This document shows, piece after piece, positions 10,816 to 13,870 of a stretch of 64,000 bases of DNA. Below the pieces are notes generated by a model. The model searched no databases and was not told where the DNA came from. It was given only the letters and a program-made list of their open reading frames with translations. This stretch comes from an uncultured Myxococcales bacterium (GTDB lineage: Bacteria > Myxococcota > UBA727 > JABDBI01). Where the stretch lies: NCBI GenBank assembly GCA_964493205.1, contig CAZBMJ010000002.1, forward strand, positions 50,238 to 114,237. The letters run 5' to 3'. The translations under genes were made by a program, and so were the position numbers. Positions within the stretch are counted from its first letter, which is position 1; every line of letters starts with the position of its first letter.

Positions 10816-11355
10816 ACTACTATTAATTTAATGTTAAAAAATCAGATTTCTATTGTTGTTTTCACCTCTTGAAATTTTGTTTTAATTTGCTGTTTAGAAA
10901 TCTTATACAGTACACAAGTACCTCATGGATTTGAACCACGTAGGATTTACAATTACAGATTTTAAGTCTATATTGTTGAACCATTTTTTATTTGCTGTTA
11001 AGTGTACTTTCTCAGATAATATCAAAGGACTTTGTTTAATGATTAGTTAATCAATCTTCTTTATTATTAATGACATTTTAACTTACTCCTCTACTAAATA
11101 ATAATTAATATTGTATGCAGACTGATTTCCAGCCAGTTAATGTATAATCTTTACAAATCTGCTATATTAACTATATTTTTCAAATCAATGTAAATTATTT
11201 TAGTAATTATTTACCACTAAGTAATGCATTATTGCTGTATATTATCTTGAACAACTCTCATATAAGGAATCGAACCTTTTATTTACCCAGCATCCAGCCT
11301 TCGTCTTTATAGCAAAAAGTATTTTTATAATTGCTGTAAGAGAGTTTTAATTAAA

Positions 11356-11589
11356 TTATTGTTTAACTGGTTTAGCTTTTACATAATATGCTCTACCATT
11401 TTTATCGAATTTTTTTATCTTTCTATTAGCATTATGTTCTTCAGCAAATTCATGAGTAGAACCCATAAATAATTCTTCTTCATCTTTGAATACTTTTTCA
11501 TCGTATAAGTTTTCTGGAATACTTATAGCTTTATCAATAAAATAAACTACTGCGCATAATGCTACCATACCTACTAAAATCCACATCAT
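11356..11589 (-). CDS. Small protein with an N-terminal TM helix (77 aa); a lone ORF inside a gene-poor region
   Basis: MMWILVGMVALCAVVYFI. Confidence 0.3.
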   Translation of the reverse strand: MMWILVGMVALCAVVYFIDKAISIPENLYDEKVFKDEEELFMGSTHEFAEEHNANRKIKKFDKNGRAYYVKAKPVKQ

Positions 11590-12199
11590 ATTTAAAATTT
11601 TTAAGTGATTAAAAAAAAAACAGAATACATGTTGTTAACCGTAAAATTTCAATTTGTTGTTATTTTTAAATTTGCTATTTGTATTCTTATCAGATGATTT
11701 TATTTAGCGTGTCAAATTAAAAGTTTGGTGCTTGTTTTAAGTTGCTGTAAATCATCTTATACAGACACCATTACCTAAATAATGATGCCTGCAAACCTCT
11801 AAATCTAATATTGTTGGGGGTGCTCACTTGCAGGTGTGAGTTAGTTTCAATATCAGTGAAATTTATTGTTGTTATATTTGCTGTAAATAATCTTAACAGA
11901 TTAAGTATCCATCCACCCCCTTGTTCTTATATACCTAATAACTTGCGTTCTTTAGGTGTTAATTTTGCAAGATATAAAACCTTTGTTTGCTCAAGATCAA
12001 GCAGCAAATGCTACTTGTGGTTTTAAACTTGAAACCAAAGATACTACTTTAGCACCTTCAGTCAATTTATTAAAAAATTTGCCATTTAAAATCTGGTATA
12101 AGTTATTATAGTGAGACTACTACCATTCTCACTGCTGATTGTATACTACTTGTTATCTGTCGATTCCGTTCACCCCATATATTTTTATGTTTAATATAA

Positions 12200-13870
12200 T
12201 TAAAGCTCTATCATATTAAGTACCTCTTGATCCATTGCTGCATCAAATAGTTCTTTTTGATTTTTAGGTGCTGGTTTATCTTTAACTCCTGTTAAGAAAC
12301 TAAGAACACTACCATCATAACCACCAAAATAGAATACTTTGTATTTTTCAGAATTATATGTTTGAAATGGTCTGTTTGTATTACCATAGAATGTATTTCT
12401 AATATCCCAAAACACAAACGTTAAATTATCTCTATATTCTCTGCTAAATCCTGCAGCTTTAAGAATTTCTCTAAAAGCTTTAATATTACTGTCATTATGC
12501 ATTCCTGTTTTATCAAATTCTCCATCACTAATAACAACTAATCCATTAGGAAAGTCTTTCTCAGCAACACCTTTACCTTTAATTTCAGCAAATAATCTAG
12601 CTACACTTAAAAAATTAGTATTAGCTGATGCTTGTCTAGTTTCTGTTTGCCAGTGTTCTGTAAAAGTAGAACCTTTAATAGCTCTTAATATTGCATTTTG
12701 TGAAAAATCTATATAATGATTATGGAAGTAACCAGTAAGTAAATTAGCAAAATAAATACTAAGTGATTTAGCAACATGATAAGAAGATACTTTAGTTCCA
12801 TAAGCCATACTATCCATGCTAGTCGAGGTATCCTTCAAAACAATAAAATTAACATCTCCCCTTGTCTTACCTGCTAATTCTAATAAACCTTGATATTGTT
12901 TATCAATAGTTGTTCGTTGATAAGGTGTCATAGTATGAGATATCTTACTAGCAAGCTCGTAAACATAACCAGTAAACTTAGCTACAGGCTTAGATTCTAT
13001 CCAAGCTGTATATTTAGATTCAAGTCCTTGGTTTTTTAAGTATTTAGAACTGACTAATAAAGACAAAGCTCTACCATGAATTGTATCAAAATTAACTAAA
13101 GAATGTTTTCTCTGACTAATTAACTGTTGCCATTGATGTGCAGTACCACTAGATTTTAATTTACGATACTTTTTGTAAGTAGATGAATCTAACTTATTAC
13201 CAAATAAAAGAGAACATATCCATTTACTAATCATATTGTCTGCTTGAGACTCTAAAGTAGTACATGCATTATTACTCTTAATTTGAGGTAAATACTTTTT
13301 GACTAATTCACTAGTATTAGGATTTTCTAATCCTGCTAATAATAAATCACCAAATGCTGTCCAATTAAGAACTCTGTTATCCCATCCATTATACTGAAGA
13401 TCATAACTTAACATAGTTATAATGTCTTTCCATGAACCTACACTAATTATTAAATGAATGTTTTTCCAAAATATAGTAGGTTTATTAATTGCTATCCACA
13501 TAAATCTAAATATACCTTCATGTTTAAGACCTAAACCTTTTTGTACATCTGATGTAGATTCACCATTCCATAATTGTACTTTACGTGTAATTATTCTTGT
13601 ATAAAGAGATAATTTAAACGTAAGTATAGGACTAATTGCCCATAGTATTGCCATTAAGTTAGCTATTAATTTATATTCTCTAGGTTCTTTATAATTTCCC
13701 AGATTAGCGAAATCTGTACAAAACTCATCATCTAAAGATGAAAAAGCTTTAGCACCATTTCCTGTTGTTGTTACTGCTGCTTTTTTTAATCCTTGTGTTA
13801 AGAAAGGATTAGAAGATGCAGATGTTTTTTTATTAATTTCAAATAACTGTTTTTGTTTTGCTGTAAACAT
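12200..13870 (-). CDS. vWA-domain protein whose size and architecture are consistent with Ro60/TROVE-like (Rsr-like)
   Basis: The C-terminal ~200 aa is a von Willebrand A domain: MIDAS VNFIVLKDTSTSMDS, then ...LVVISDGEFD... The N-terminal ~330 aa is Trp/Leu-rich and helical-looking. Total length 556 aa and the TROVE-then-vWA order match the Ro60 family. Confidence 0.5.
   Translation of the reverse strand: MFTAKQKQLFEINKKTSASSNPFLTQGLKKAAVTTTGNGAKAFSSLDDEFCTDFANLGNYKEPREYKLIANLMAILWAISPILTFKLSLYTRIITRKVQLWNGESTSDVQKGLGLKHEGIFRFMWIAINKPTIFWKNIHLIISVGSWKDIITMLSYDLQYNGWDNRVLNWTAFGDLLLAGLENPNTSELVKKYLPQIKSNNACTTLESQADNMISKWICSLLFGNKLDSSTYKKYRKLKSSGTAHQWQQLISQRKHSLVNFDTIHGRALSLLVSSKYLKNQGLESKYTAWIESKPVAKFTGYVYELASKISHTMTPYQRTTIDKQYQGLLELAGKTRGDVNFIVLKDTSTSMDSMAYGTKVSSYHVAKSLSIYFANLLTGYFHNHYIDFSQNAILRAIKGSTFTEHWQTETRQASANTNFLSVARLFAEIKGKGVAEKDFPNGLVVISDGEFDKTGMHNDSNIKAFREILKAAGFSREYRDNLTFVFWDIRNTFYGNTNRPFQTYNSEKYKVFYFGGYDGSVLSFLTGVKDKPAPKNQKELFDAAMDQEVLNMIEL

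Follow-up and report, generated by a model that had tools for sequence, protein, structure and literature searches.

The 64,000-nt stretch analyzed here (the window) is tailed-phage DNA that encodes a terminase, a portal, and a major head protein. On its minus strand, positions 12200–13870 encode a 556-aa Ro60-like protein whose N-terminal domain is helical and of the DUF2828 type, and whose vWA domain, a DUF7788, has a MIDAS. A first-pass annotation had proposed a Ro60/TROVE-like protein at this position, with a helical-looking N-terminal module of ~330 aa and a C-terminal vWA domain marked by DTSTSM and ISDGE. The domain structure is borne out: DTSTSM occupies residues 347–352 and ISDGE residues 447–451; the full MIDAS (DxSxS...T...D) is found family-wide, with D347, S349, and S351 invariant and T418 and D449 conserved in at least 90% of the family; and residues 1–330 are mostly helical in an AF2 model.

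The Ro60/TROVE identity holds for fold and for the vWA domain, but not as a TROVE sequence match. The modeled protein has the succession characteristic of the Ro60 fold, a helical-repeat ring domain and then a vWA domain, although Foldseek TM-scores between it and Ro60 are only 0.27–0.48. Ro60 proteins bind Y RNA on their outer face and the ends of single-stranded RNA in the hole of the ring. The vWA domain is closest to that of Ro60: the top PDB matches of a diverse family profile were the human and Xenopus Ro60 vWA domains (E = 0.0014 and 0.003), while a search with a narrow family profile recovered no Ro60. PF25045 (vWA_Ro60) was matched weakly by 16 of 65 diverse family members (best E, 7e-4), whereas PF05731 (TROVE) matched none of the 65, nor the window protein at E ≤ 1. 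As modeled, ORF 12200–13870 encodes a Ro60-fold protein (helical ring-type domain plus MIDAS vWA) of the DUF2828/DUF7788 family. This family is large, with 1307 cluster representatives at E ≤ 1e-3 in an exhaustive search. Pfam-annotated relatives of the protein come from bacteria, tailed phages, amoebozoan transcriptomes, and giant viruses of protists, and the Pfam listing for DUF2828/DUF7788 includes plant and fungal members as well. No paper on the function of either domain was found in the open literature searched.

Downstream of the gene is a gene-poor region (10816–12199), previously said to hold a single ORF of 77 aa. This is indeed the only minus-strand ORF of at least 60 aa there; two others (71 and 51 aa) are on the plus strand and apparently spurious. 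The 77-aa ORF (11356–11589, minus strand) has an N-terminal hydrophobic helix, but no Pfam or PHROG match and no tblastn match in 31 related loci, and is probably outside the system described below. What fills the region instead is a tiling of small predicted RNA units on the gene's strand, seven in 10840–11920 and two more in 9906–10041, with the 77-aa ORF between two blocks of them. They share a plan: a helix of 7–9 bp joins the ends, immediately after the 5' strand comes the motif ACAGCAA, and ahead of the 3' strand an A-rich tract. Helix and motif are referred to here as the handle, and the variable sequence between its strands as the insert. Adjacent units are separated by ~4 nt (GAUA). 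A covariance model of the unit (R1), built from related phages, was run over all 64 kb, and every match with E < 0.2 falls in 9906–13873 on the minus strand. ACAGCAA itself occurs 20 times in the window, where 8.2 copies are expected, including seven on the minus strand of 9962–11884. The Y-RNA-like RNA that had been hypothesized here thus takes the form of an array of Y-RNA-like units, at least seven plus two, in a class absent from Rfam, and not of a single YrlA.

Read in the direction of the gene, the region begins with an unexplained 194-nt element (11972–12165, no strand assigned), 92% identical to its positional counterpart in the contig of a distantly related phage. It includes an AGTGAGA/TCTCACT hairpin, reported earlier at ~12148–12176 and in fact at 12110–12132, some 40 nt away. 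The element has an MFE z of −1.87 and no match to Rfam or R1, and the relative's copy of a plus-strand ORF within it has no start codon. The first unit, U1 (11816–11920, minus strand), is cloverleaf-like, with a 7-bp outer helix (GGGGGUG/CACCCCC) enclosing three hairpins, ACAGCAA at the junction following the first arm, and an MFE fold with z = −3.0. This outer helix is the G5 stem around CTCAC-loop-GTGAG that had already been noticed; it is real and present in the MFE fold, but its plus-strand arms are at 11816–11822 and 11914–11920, the second having been placed at 11909. U1 has an orthologue at 79% identity (locus L016) and a partial R1 match (11851–11893).

Next on the minus strand is a 12-bp hairpin with loop UUUAGG (11762–11791), directly before a UAUA spacer and U2. 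Read by eye, its pairing is conserved in L003 with compensatory changes (BLAST match of 11779–11665 to L003 8600–8715). No unit type is conserved more widely than U2 (11688–11757, minus strand), which has orthologues in over 12 loci. It consists of the handle AGAUGAUUU/AAAUCAUCU, present in the MFE fold, then ACAGCAA, the hairpin CAAA-CUUUUAA-UUUG with the loop of tRNA-Lys(UUU), and the GAUA spacer (R1, 67.5 bits, E = 1e-11). U3 (11611–11687, minus strand) has the variant motif AUAGCAA (R1, 38.2 bits, E = 1.5e-5), followed by a run of ten T (11611–11620) that probably ends a first transcript.

Beyond the 77-aa ORF, U4 (11253–11346, minus strand; R1, 19.7 bits) has the handle AACUCUC/GAGAGUU around ACAGCAA, an anticodon-arm-like hairpin, a short hairpin, and a T-arm, AAGG-UUCGAUU-CCUU; in a consensus fold from seven orthologues, 10 of 19 pairs have compensatory changes. 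U5 (11014–11247, minus strand) is a long unit, closed by a perfect 9-bp handle (AGAUAAUAU/AUAUUAUCU) that is kept in the MFE fold. It contains ACAGCAA and an insert of ~210 nt, including the anticodon-like hairpin ACUGG-CUGGAAA-UCAGU, and has no R1 match, its insert being longer than the model can accommodate. U6 (10909–11008, minus strand), with the handle AGUACAC/GUGUACU in its MFE fold, has ACAGCAA, the hairpin UAUAGA-CUUAAAA-UCUGUA, and a second T-arm, CGUGG-UUCAAAU-CCAUG; its orthologue at L008 8467–8579 scores 35 bits with R1 (E = 3e-4). U7 (10840–10903, minus strand) has the handle AGAUUUCUA/UAGAAAUCU plus ACAGCAA (R1, 34 bits, E = 1e-4) and is followed by a T-run just ahead of the next ORF. 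The remaining two units, also on the minus strand, lie beyond the region covered by the first-pass annotation: U8 (9978–10041), with the variant motif ACAACAA (R1, 44.2 bits, E = 8e-7), and U9 (9906–9977), with handle AAGUUAC/GUAACUU and ACAGCAA (R1, 38.2 bits, E = 1.5e-5). Canonical terminators were not found, and a sigma-70 promoter scan was at background and uninformative.

A short conserved motif at regular spacing in an intergenic region would also suit repeats acting at the DNA level, such as phage promoters or operators, REP/MITE-like elements, or recombination sites. The closing helix was scored by a test blind to complementarity, in fixed register, over 104 units. Helix positions 1–7 form Watson-Crick pairs in 67–74% of units, compared to 31–46% with shuffled partners; the first position is nearly invariant, and is 66% paired even when partners are shuffled. 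In the seed alignment, 91% of cells are paired, with a covariation score of 0.81 (0.21 in shuffles, at most 0.18 in slid registers), and over 116 R1 matches the figure is 96.7% of helix cells. There are 97 distinct stem sequences among the 104 units. Arms that vary between copies and yet remain complementary indicate that what is selected is the fold of a single strand and not a DNA site or a terminal inverted repeat. Every copy moreover has the orientation of the gene, and the inserts bear tRNA-type hairpins; with the sigma-70 scan at background, a DNA-level function is very unlikely.

The two T-arms (minus strand, 11264–11279 in U4 and 10924–10940 in U6) had been picked out at these places as tRNA T-arm look-alikes, and they are not chance: hairpins of the form G-TTCRANN-C with a stem of at least 4 bp occur four times in 64 kb (in tRNA-His, in tRNA-Gln, and in these two), where shuffled sequences have 0.37. 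As had also been said, they are not parts of complete cloverleafs. ARAGORN and Rfam (RF00005) find tRNA-His and tRNA-Gln only in the window and nothing in 9900–12200, nor is any known RNA found in the region at Rfam gathering scores. Isolated T-arms without a cloverleaf, with real tRNA genes nearby (14622–14696 and 19988–20059), could suggest remnants of tRNA genes, or attP-like tRNA 3' ends left by integration or excision, which was the alternative offered originally. Both, however, sit within ACAGCAA units whose closing helix covaries; unrelated phage contigs preserve the units as wholes, with compensatory changes; dozens of phages show the same pattern; and no integrase is nearby. This origin is hardly credible.

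The inserts of related phages show the same tRNA-like character. Hairpins with 7-nt loops number 130, compared to 44.5 in shuffles, and the loops are enriched for a pyrimidine in the first position (C 37%, U 35%), U in the second (68%), and A in the sixth (60%), corresponding to tRNA positions 32, 33, and 37. An anticodon-like hairpin is present in 59 of 116 units (4.6 expected) and a T-loop hairpin in 16 (0.26 expected); the commonest anticodon-arm loop is that of tRNA-Lys(UUU). The order of the insert is colinear with a tRNA opened at the junction of D- and anticodon arms: anticodon-like arm, variable region, T-arm. Many units retain the anticodon-like arm only; in relatives, inserts continue past the T-arm with an acceptor hairpin and D-arm. 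Full T/AS/D modules are found in units of L001, L003, L006, L010, L024, and L069, while those of the window have T-arms (U4, U6) and anticodon-like arms but no D-arm.

In all, R1 finds 116 units in 28 of 30 related phage loci, all on the strand of the gene and mostly within 2.5 kb downstream of it. In the reverse direction, a DNA pattern for the unit junction, searched in IMG/VR, led to 24 loci with R1 units, 19 of which have the protein gene within the stretch fetched. The phage loci fetched hold more than 180 R1 matches together (116 + 69; some loci share contigs). In a GC-richer phage lineage, whose protein is 25% identical to that of the window, ACAGCAA units are kept, but directly upstream of the gene and interleaved with real tRNAs; in another type (L059) they are ~7 kb away from it. 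The system is also carried by a cultured phage, Leptolyngbya phage Lbo-JY46, which offers an experimental entry point.

A further copy of the handle is at the 5' end of the gene's own mRNA (13809–13873, minus strand), as AAGAUGUUU-ACAGCAA-(about 30 nt)-AAACAUCU-G, the 5' strand of its helix containing the start codon (R1, 25.4 bits, E = 0.008 for the whole window). It is not peculiar to this phage: CATCTG is found at +20 to +90 in 23 of 30 homologous genes, whereas the rest of these genes has 0.015 per 70 nt; a helix of 7 bp or more is present in 37% of loci and 3.8% of controls; and ACAGCAA is kept there in two different reading frames (MFTAK and MFNSK). The location of the start codon within a handle copy suggests autoregulation.

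The units might be self-standing tRNA-like RNAs of a phage tRNA cluster, as anticodon-arm decoys or degenerate mini-tRNAs, with the protein merely a frequent neighbor. The helix would then mimic an acceptor stem, and ACAGCAA and GAUA would be processing signals for RNase P, RNase Z, or RNase E. Its length would suit, being essentially 7 bp (pairs 1–7 ~100% paired, pair 8 ~74%); the U4-type order of helix, ACAGCAA, anticodon-like arm, variable region, T-arm, and helix is that of a cloverleaf minus its D-arm; and real tRNAs are interleaved among the units in L003 and L069. Two bacterial chromosomal DUF2828 genes (Lewinella, Chitinophagales) also have no such RNA nearby, so that any partnership may be confined to phage lineages. 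On the other hand, the handle is enriched ~50-fold at the 5' end of the gene and its motif is preserved in more than one reading frame, which would be difficult to account for if neither the protein nor its expression had a connection with the handle, and the linkage of gene and RNAs survives divergence to 25% protein identity and the switch from downstream to upstream. Nor are the units decoding tRNAs, since their "anticodons" differ between orthologues. On balance, an array independent of the protein seems unlikely.

The explanation favored here, with moderate confidence, is a Ro60/Y-RNA ribonucleoprotein in phage form, whose protein comes from a divergent family and whose RNAs make up a new class. 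From synteny, covariation, and the mRNA mimic we infer expression, processing, and protein-RNA contact. The units would be transcribed as one or two precursors ending at the T-runs, and these cut into separate RNAs. The protein may also bind the handle copy that buries its own start codon, and so repress its own translation; the mimic thus makes translational autoregulation a defined regulatory hypothesis. The ribonucleoprotein could then present its tRNA-like modules to tRNA-directed enzymes. It might be a decoy aimed at host anticodon nucleases or modification enzymes; alternatively, it might be a tether by which a nuclease or repair enzyme is recruited to the Ro-like ring, in the way that Y RNA recruits PNPase. 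The presence of tRNA parts, above all the anticodon arm, on a common handle fits ribonucleoproteins acting in conflicts over tRNA cleavage and repair. If so, the widespread DUF2828/DUF7788 family gains its first functional lead, since a Ro60-like fold with a dedicated class of RNA partners makes for a testable function, and the units would form a new class of phage small RNAs with a signature simple enough to be added to annotation pipelines.

Among known systems, phage tRNA clusters are similar in that small structured RNA genes lie in tandem and in one orientation within an early region, among tRNAs, with tRNA-like helices and a plausible role in tRNA-cleavage conflicts. Phage tRNAs can bypass anticodon nucleases such as PrrC or PARIS, and the tRNA region of T4 also encodes stable RNAs, species 1 and 2. 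The units differ from these clusters in not being tRNAs, in having a common motif foreign to tRNA, and in their tie to a Ro60-like gene.

The bacterial Ro60 (Rsr) and YrlA/YrlB systems (Chen et al., 2014, PMC4201824; RF02553) share several features with this locus: a protein with ring-type helical domain and MIDAS vWA; adjacent same-strand small RNA genes, often several from one precursor (the processing being inferred here); paired RNA ends, with a conserved motif on or beside the 5' strand; and, in relatives of this phage, a tRNA-mimicking effector module in which T-arm, acceptor hairpin, and D-arm are permuted. In bacteria and phages, Ro60 genes adjoin same-strand Y RNAs with tRNA-like domains (PMC4201824; PMC12135203). 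Given such published phage pairs, and a protein modeled with the Ro60 fold, this could be simply another known Ro60-YrlA locus, with a fast-evolving TROVE protein and diverged YrlA/YrlB copies. Some relatives do have YrlA-like T/AS/D modules with sub-threshold matches to Rfam YrlA (39 and 35.8 bits in L001, E = 9e-7 and 7.5e-6; gathering score 69). The units of the window, however, match neither Y_RNA (RF00019) nor YrlA (RF02553) even at E ≤ 10, and the protein belongs to DUF2828/DUF7788, with the TROVE model silent across all 65 members. In place of GNCGAA(N)G, proposed with its animal equivalent GGUCCGA as the Ro60 recognition motif near the Y RNA 5' end (Chen et al., 2014), the units have ACAGCAA. 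There are up to ~12 units per phage, many only 50–70 nt, and their commonest module, for most the only one, is an anticodon-like arm, which canonical YrlA lacks. The phage gene's own mRNA bears a handle copy, while no mRNA mimic has been described for Ro60. A known Ro60-YrlA locus is accordingly a distinctly improbable description. The Thermus phage phiLo system is different again: its Ro60 is a recognizable TROVE protein (PDB 9KOP, 9L5Y), its Yrl1 and Yrl2 are upstream of the gene and were identified by their CGAA motif (PMC12135203), and no array, ACAGCAA motif, or anticodon-arm modules have been reported for it.

The handle itself closely resembles that of the dictyostelid Class I RNAs (RF01414; Kjellin et al., 2021, PMC7919456), which are 45–65 nt in length. 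In these a short helix likewise joins the 5' and 3' ends, with the motif CCUUACAGCAA beside its 5' strand; when real Class I sequences are aligned with phage units, ACAGCAA begins at nt 10 in both, while the CCUU portion of the motif is only U-rich in the latter. The two classes are also alike in length, and both have a variable middle, an A-rich tract before the 3' strand, and a 3' CUG. RF01414 matches U7 best (30.5 bits, E = 0.003; gathering score 41.5) and five further units at 19.6–22 bits. Class I RNAs are eukaryotic, reportedly unique to dictyostelids, transcribed individually from DUSE promoters ~60 nt upstream, and bound by the RRM protein Rnp1A (PMC7919456); the phage units stand in tandem, and the 4 nt between them are too few for each to have a promoter upstream of it. 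There is no known link between Class I RNAs and a DUF2828 protein, and the likeness may be convergent. It is a doubtful proposition that the helix plus ACAGCAA is a general RNA ligand of DUF2828/DUF7788 proteins far outside these phages, with the abundant Class I RNAs as the eukaryotic counterpart of the phage units by descent or convergence. Should the likeness be more than convergence, it would give this orphan class of RNAs both a relative and a candidate mechanism.

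The first-pass annotation had proposed a Ro60-like protein, encoded by the 556-aa ORF at 12200-13870 (minus strand), beside a Y-RNA-like RNA in the gene-poor region 10816-12199. No known RNA family was found in 9900-12200 by tRNA and tmRNA scans or by Rfam at gathering score, and neither Y_RNA nor YrlA has a match in the window in Rfam at E <= 10. Scanned permissively with Rfam, the gene-poor region yielded three weak matches to Dictyostelium Class I RNAs, all centred on the heptamer ACAGCAA, and these sub-threshold matches led to the motif itself. ACAGCAA occurs 20 times in the window (8.2 expected), with seven copies on the minus strand of 9962-11884; the 7-9 nt before each have their reverse complement 50-230 nt downstream. 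The arm pairs vary by copy: AGAUGAUUU/AAAUCAUCU, AACUCUC/GAGAGUU, AGUACAC/GUGUACU, AGAUUUCUA/UAGAAAUCU, AGAUAAUAU/AUAUUAUCU, and AAGUUAC/GUAACUU. The closing helix plus ACAGCAA is here called the handle, and the small RNA units, all on the minus strand, are numbered U1-U9.

Abutting units are separated by spacers of 4-5 nt, and tiling of 10840-11920 (minus strand) is nearly complete. In order, it consists of U1, a conserved 12-bp hairpin, U2, U3 with a T-run, a 77-aa ORF, U4, U5, U6, and U7 with a T-run; two more units are found farther downstream, past two ORFs. The 77-aa ORF, between the U3 and U4 blocks, is not conserved. The 12-bp hairpin (11762-11791, minus strand; loop UUUAGG) directly precedes the spacer and U2, and has a counterpart with compensatory changes at about 8590-8618 in L003, a related locus; it looks like a unit without ACAGCAA. 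Two plus-strand ORFs, 11811-12026 and 11956-12111, were rejected as genes: the start codon is absent in a relative, and most changes are non-synonymous. Just 3' of the Ro-like gene is a 194-nt non-coding stretch (11972-12165) that is 92% identical to one in the same position in locus L008 (IMGVR_UViG_3300037502_003029, 5739-5932), where identity between the flanking protein genes drops to about 54%. A search of INPHARED phages did not find it, and IMG/VR has a single other copy; either the stretch is an RNA under strong constraint or the element was exchanged recently. Two structures proposed earlier do exist, but not quite where they had been placed: the CACCCCC arm of a GGGGGTG/CACCCCC helix is at 11914-11920 instead of 11909, and an AGTGAGA/TCTCACT hairpin is at 12110-12132 instead of approximately 12148-12176.

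Minimum free energy z-scores of single AT-rich units are mostly non-significant (-0.3 to -2.2, with U1 an exception at -3.0), so the case for structure is one of covariation, not of folding energy. The closing helix was first tested on 104 units in a fixed register, set by consecutive motifs alone to avoid circularity. Watson-Crick pairing at positions 1-7 is seen in 67-74% of these, compared to 31-46% with shuffled partners (66% at position 1, which is almost invariant); the stems comprise 97 distinct sequences. In a seed of 34 short units, 91% of cells are paired and the covariation score is 0.81, versus 0.21 for shuffles and at most 0.18 for slid registers. A covariance model of the unit (R1) was run unfiltered over the whole window, and all its matches with E < 0.2 are on the minus strand at 9906-13873: U2 (67.5 bits), U8, U3, U9, U7, the 5' end of the Ro-like gene, part of U1, and U4. 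U5, which is closed by a perfect helix of 9 bp, and U6, whose orthologue in L008 is R1-positive, exceed the length range of the model.

The units are linked to the gene. On contigs with homologues of the protein (43-73% identity), co-oriented ACAGCAA clusters start 40-300 nt past it, with unit boundaries of the form ...CU-GAUA-AG... (hyphens at the boundaries). At E <= 0.01, R1 recovers 116 units from 28 of 30 phage loci, the sequence of the other two stopping at the end of the gene; every one of them is on the gene's strand, with 96.7% of helix cells paired. Three closer relatives yield 19 additional units at E <= 0.1. Searched from the other direction, with CTGATAAG-N7-ACAGCAA, IMG/VR has 24 loci with R1 units, and the protein gene is in 19 of these stretches; in the other five, the units are at the stretch edge or the phage is of a type with units about 7 kb from the gene. 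A profile search of genome contigs found three loci, all on MAG contigs, two of them with units. Two bacterial chromosomal DUF2828 loci have no R1 match, and in Rfam at E <= 1 gave two weak unrelated matches far below gathering scores. In a GC-richer lineage (L051, L060, L069, L081, L105), the protein is clearly DUF2828/DUF7788 but only 25% identical to that of the window, and ACAGCAA units with GC-rich stems, mixed with real tRNAs, are directly upstream of the gene; the motif has therefore been kept across deep protein divergence and a change in gene order. The units constitute a covarying, strand-specific, gene-linked RNA class. To this extent the Y-RNA-like proposal was borne out, although by an array rather than one YrlA, and with no Rfam Y_RNA match in the window. 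Read by eye, the arrays at L003 8479-9400 and L069 1480-2030 alternate with tRNA genes that look intact: several in L069, and in L003 a tRNA with UCU as anticodon and a long-arm one with GUA.

The window is AT-rich (28% GC) and comes from a tailed phage. Terminase, portal, and major head protein are encoded on the plus strand from 33.7 kb onward, and an early-type block of small minus-strand ORFs includes two tRNAs, GIY-YIG endonucleases, and a DNA polymerase fragment. The DNA-polymerase-like ORF (6191-7348; PHROG 1252) has GIY-YIG homing-endonuclease ORFs on either side (5053-6186 and 7345-8040; all minus strand), which suggests a polymerase gene split or invaded by homing endonucleases. Six mutually dissimilar small ORFs (78-137 aa) surrounding the Ro-like gene terminate in Trp-Trp-Trp-stop (8067-8315, 8303-8623, 9496-9741, 13897-14127, 14115-14348, and 14703-15104, minus strand); TGGTGGTGG occurs six times in the 64-kb window, in every case at one of these ORF ends with the stop codon immediately after. 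No conserved partner protein was found among the neighbours in 31 related loci. A 90-aa Cys-rich ORF directly past the array (10543-10815, minus strand), without a Pfam or PHROG match, recurs beside arrays in five of these (31-56% identity), and the remaining neighbour ORFs in none to two.

Many of the units contain tRNA-like parts. Hairpins with 7-nt loops are three-fold enriched in the inserts (130 vs. 44.5), with other loop sizes near background. The loops favour a pyrimidine in the first position (C 37%, U 35%), U in the second (68%), and A in the sixth (60%), corresponding to tRNA positions 32, 33, and 37, the anticodon-loop signature; the commonest, CUUUUAA, is the loop of tRNA-Lys(UUU). 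Anticodon-like hairpins are found in 59 of the 116 units (4.6 expected) and T-loop hairpins in 16 (0.26 expected). Two T-arm look-alikes noted in the first-pass annotation are present and non-random: the window has four G-TTCRANN-C hairpins with stems of at least 4 bp in its 64 kb (0.37 expected), these two and two in real tRNAs. Longer units in relatives add, in order, a T-arm, an acceptor-like hairpin, and a canonical D-arm, and have sub-threshold Rfam YrlA matches (E 9e-7 and 7.5e-6). Every unit type follows the linear order of a tRNA that has been opened between D-arm and anticodon arm and closed with the handle, and arms are progressively lost. U4-type units have the order handle, ACAGCAA, anticodon-like arm, short hairpin, T-arm, handle, with compensatory changes at 10 of 19 pairs among seven orthologues; since their “anticodons” differ between orthologues, they are mimics rather than decoders.

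The ORF at 12200-13870 and its MIDAS motif are as first described. By sequence the protein is DUF7788 (PHROG 850, “RNA-binding protein”), and its homologues carry DUF2828 and DUF7788. Pfam TROVE, the family initially suggested, matched neither the window protein nor any of 65 family members, and a narrow family profile (A1) had no matches in a PDB sequence search. For a diverse profile (A6; 65 sequences, to 26% identity), the top PDB sequence matches are human and Xenopus Ro60, confined to the vWA domain, over the MIDAS region; Pfam vWA_Ro60 is touched by 16 of the 65 members. Of the MIDAS residues, D347, S349, and S351 show no variation and T418 and D449 almost none; several basic residues of the helical domain (R64, R92, R96, K192, K239, and H245) are likewise invariant or nearly invariant. 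The protein is Ro60-like by predicted fold, outside Pfam TROVE. Public data include exactly this protein on a contig of 138.8 kb, and the closest annotated relative is a gene of Leptolyngbya phage Lbo-JY46 (PP438436) labelled hypothetical; units are found in that record at about 7300-7650. An amoebozoan homologue (P0229, 843 aa, Rhizamoeba saxonica transcriptome) has DUF2828 and DUF7788 fused to a C-terminal PF13563, a 2',5' RNA ligase/2H phosphoesterase domain, a hint of an RNA-end-processing context for the family. Structural relatives of model m35ef8ea1e3f8 in BFVD, annotated DUF2828 or DUF7788, come from many giant viruses that infect protists (Pithovirus, Cafeteria roenbergensis virus, ChoanoV1, Marseillevirus, Bodo saltans virus, Catovirus) and in Acinetobacter phage ME3.

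The gene itself begins with a copy of the handle: its 5' end reads AAG-AUG-UUU-ACA-GCA-AAA, then AAACAUCUG 30 nt on. The R1 score is 25.4 bits in the window, with relatives reaching as much as 40.5 bits. CATCTG is found at +20 to +90 in 23 of 30 homologous genes, compared to 0.015 per 70 nt elsewhere in them, and a helix of at least 7 bp joins -3 to +8 with +25 to +85 at 37% of loci (3.8% of controls). ACAGCAA encodes Thr-Ala in part of the genes and, one frame off, Asn-Ser in others, and the downstream arm is variably spaced within a low-confidence N-terminal tail, so selection is on the RNA. A start codon buried in a handle is the classic layout for translational autoregulation by an RNA-binding protein; of the indirect arguments for recognition of the handle by the protein, it is the strongest.

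These loci combine a protein of Ro60-like predicted fold, a gene-linked RNA class, modules made of tRNA parts, and an mRNA copy of the handle. The units could be transcribed into precursors that terminate at the T-runs past U3 and U7, with processing at the spacers; a sigma-70 promoter scan was at background (29 sites, 28.6 expected), with no terminators found. The protein would bind the helix and ACAGCAA, by analogy with Ro60, which contacts chiefly the 5' strand of the Y RNA helix (PMC4201824). It may repress its own translation via the gene-start handle, and the tRNA mimics might be presented to tRNA-directed enzymes, either as decoys for anticodon nucleases or as a tether such as the Y RNA proposed to link Ro60 to PNPase in phage phiLo (PMC12135203).

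Phage Ro60 homologues with Y-like RNAs have been published (PMC4201824, PMC12135203), but these are recognisable TROVE proteins with CGAA-motif RNAs, whereas the present loci have a DUF2828/DUF7788 protein and ACAGCAA RNAs. The open (non-subscription) literature searched held nothing on DUF2828/DUF7788 function or on an ACAGCAA RNA class in phages. A second comparison is with the Dictyostelium Class I RNAs, described as unique to dictyostelids (Kjellin et al., PMC7919456). The Rfam model for these (RF01414) matches six phage units, all sub-threshold (10840-10903 in the window and other units; 7999-8421 in L001). Curated Class I RNAs (e.g., DdR-21, GUUGACCUUACAGCAA...GUCAACUG) and phage units have in common a helix joining the ends, ACAGCAA from nt 10, similar size, an A-rich tract before the 3' strand, a 3' CUG, and an A-rich context ahead of the 5' end. 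The Ro-like protein has homologues in transcriptomes of amoebozoans and in numerous giant protist viruses. A link to the Class I RNAs is a lead, if rather an unlikely one.
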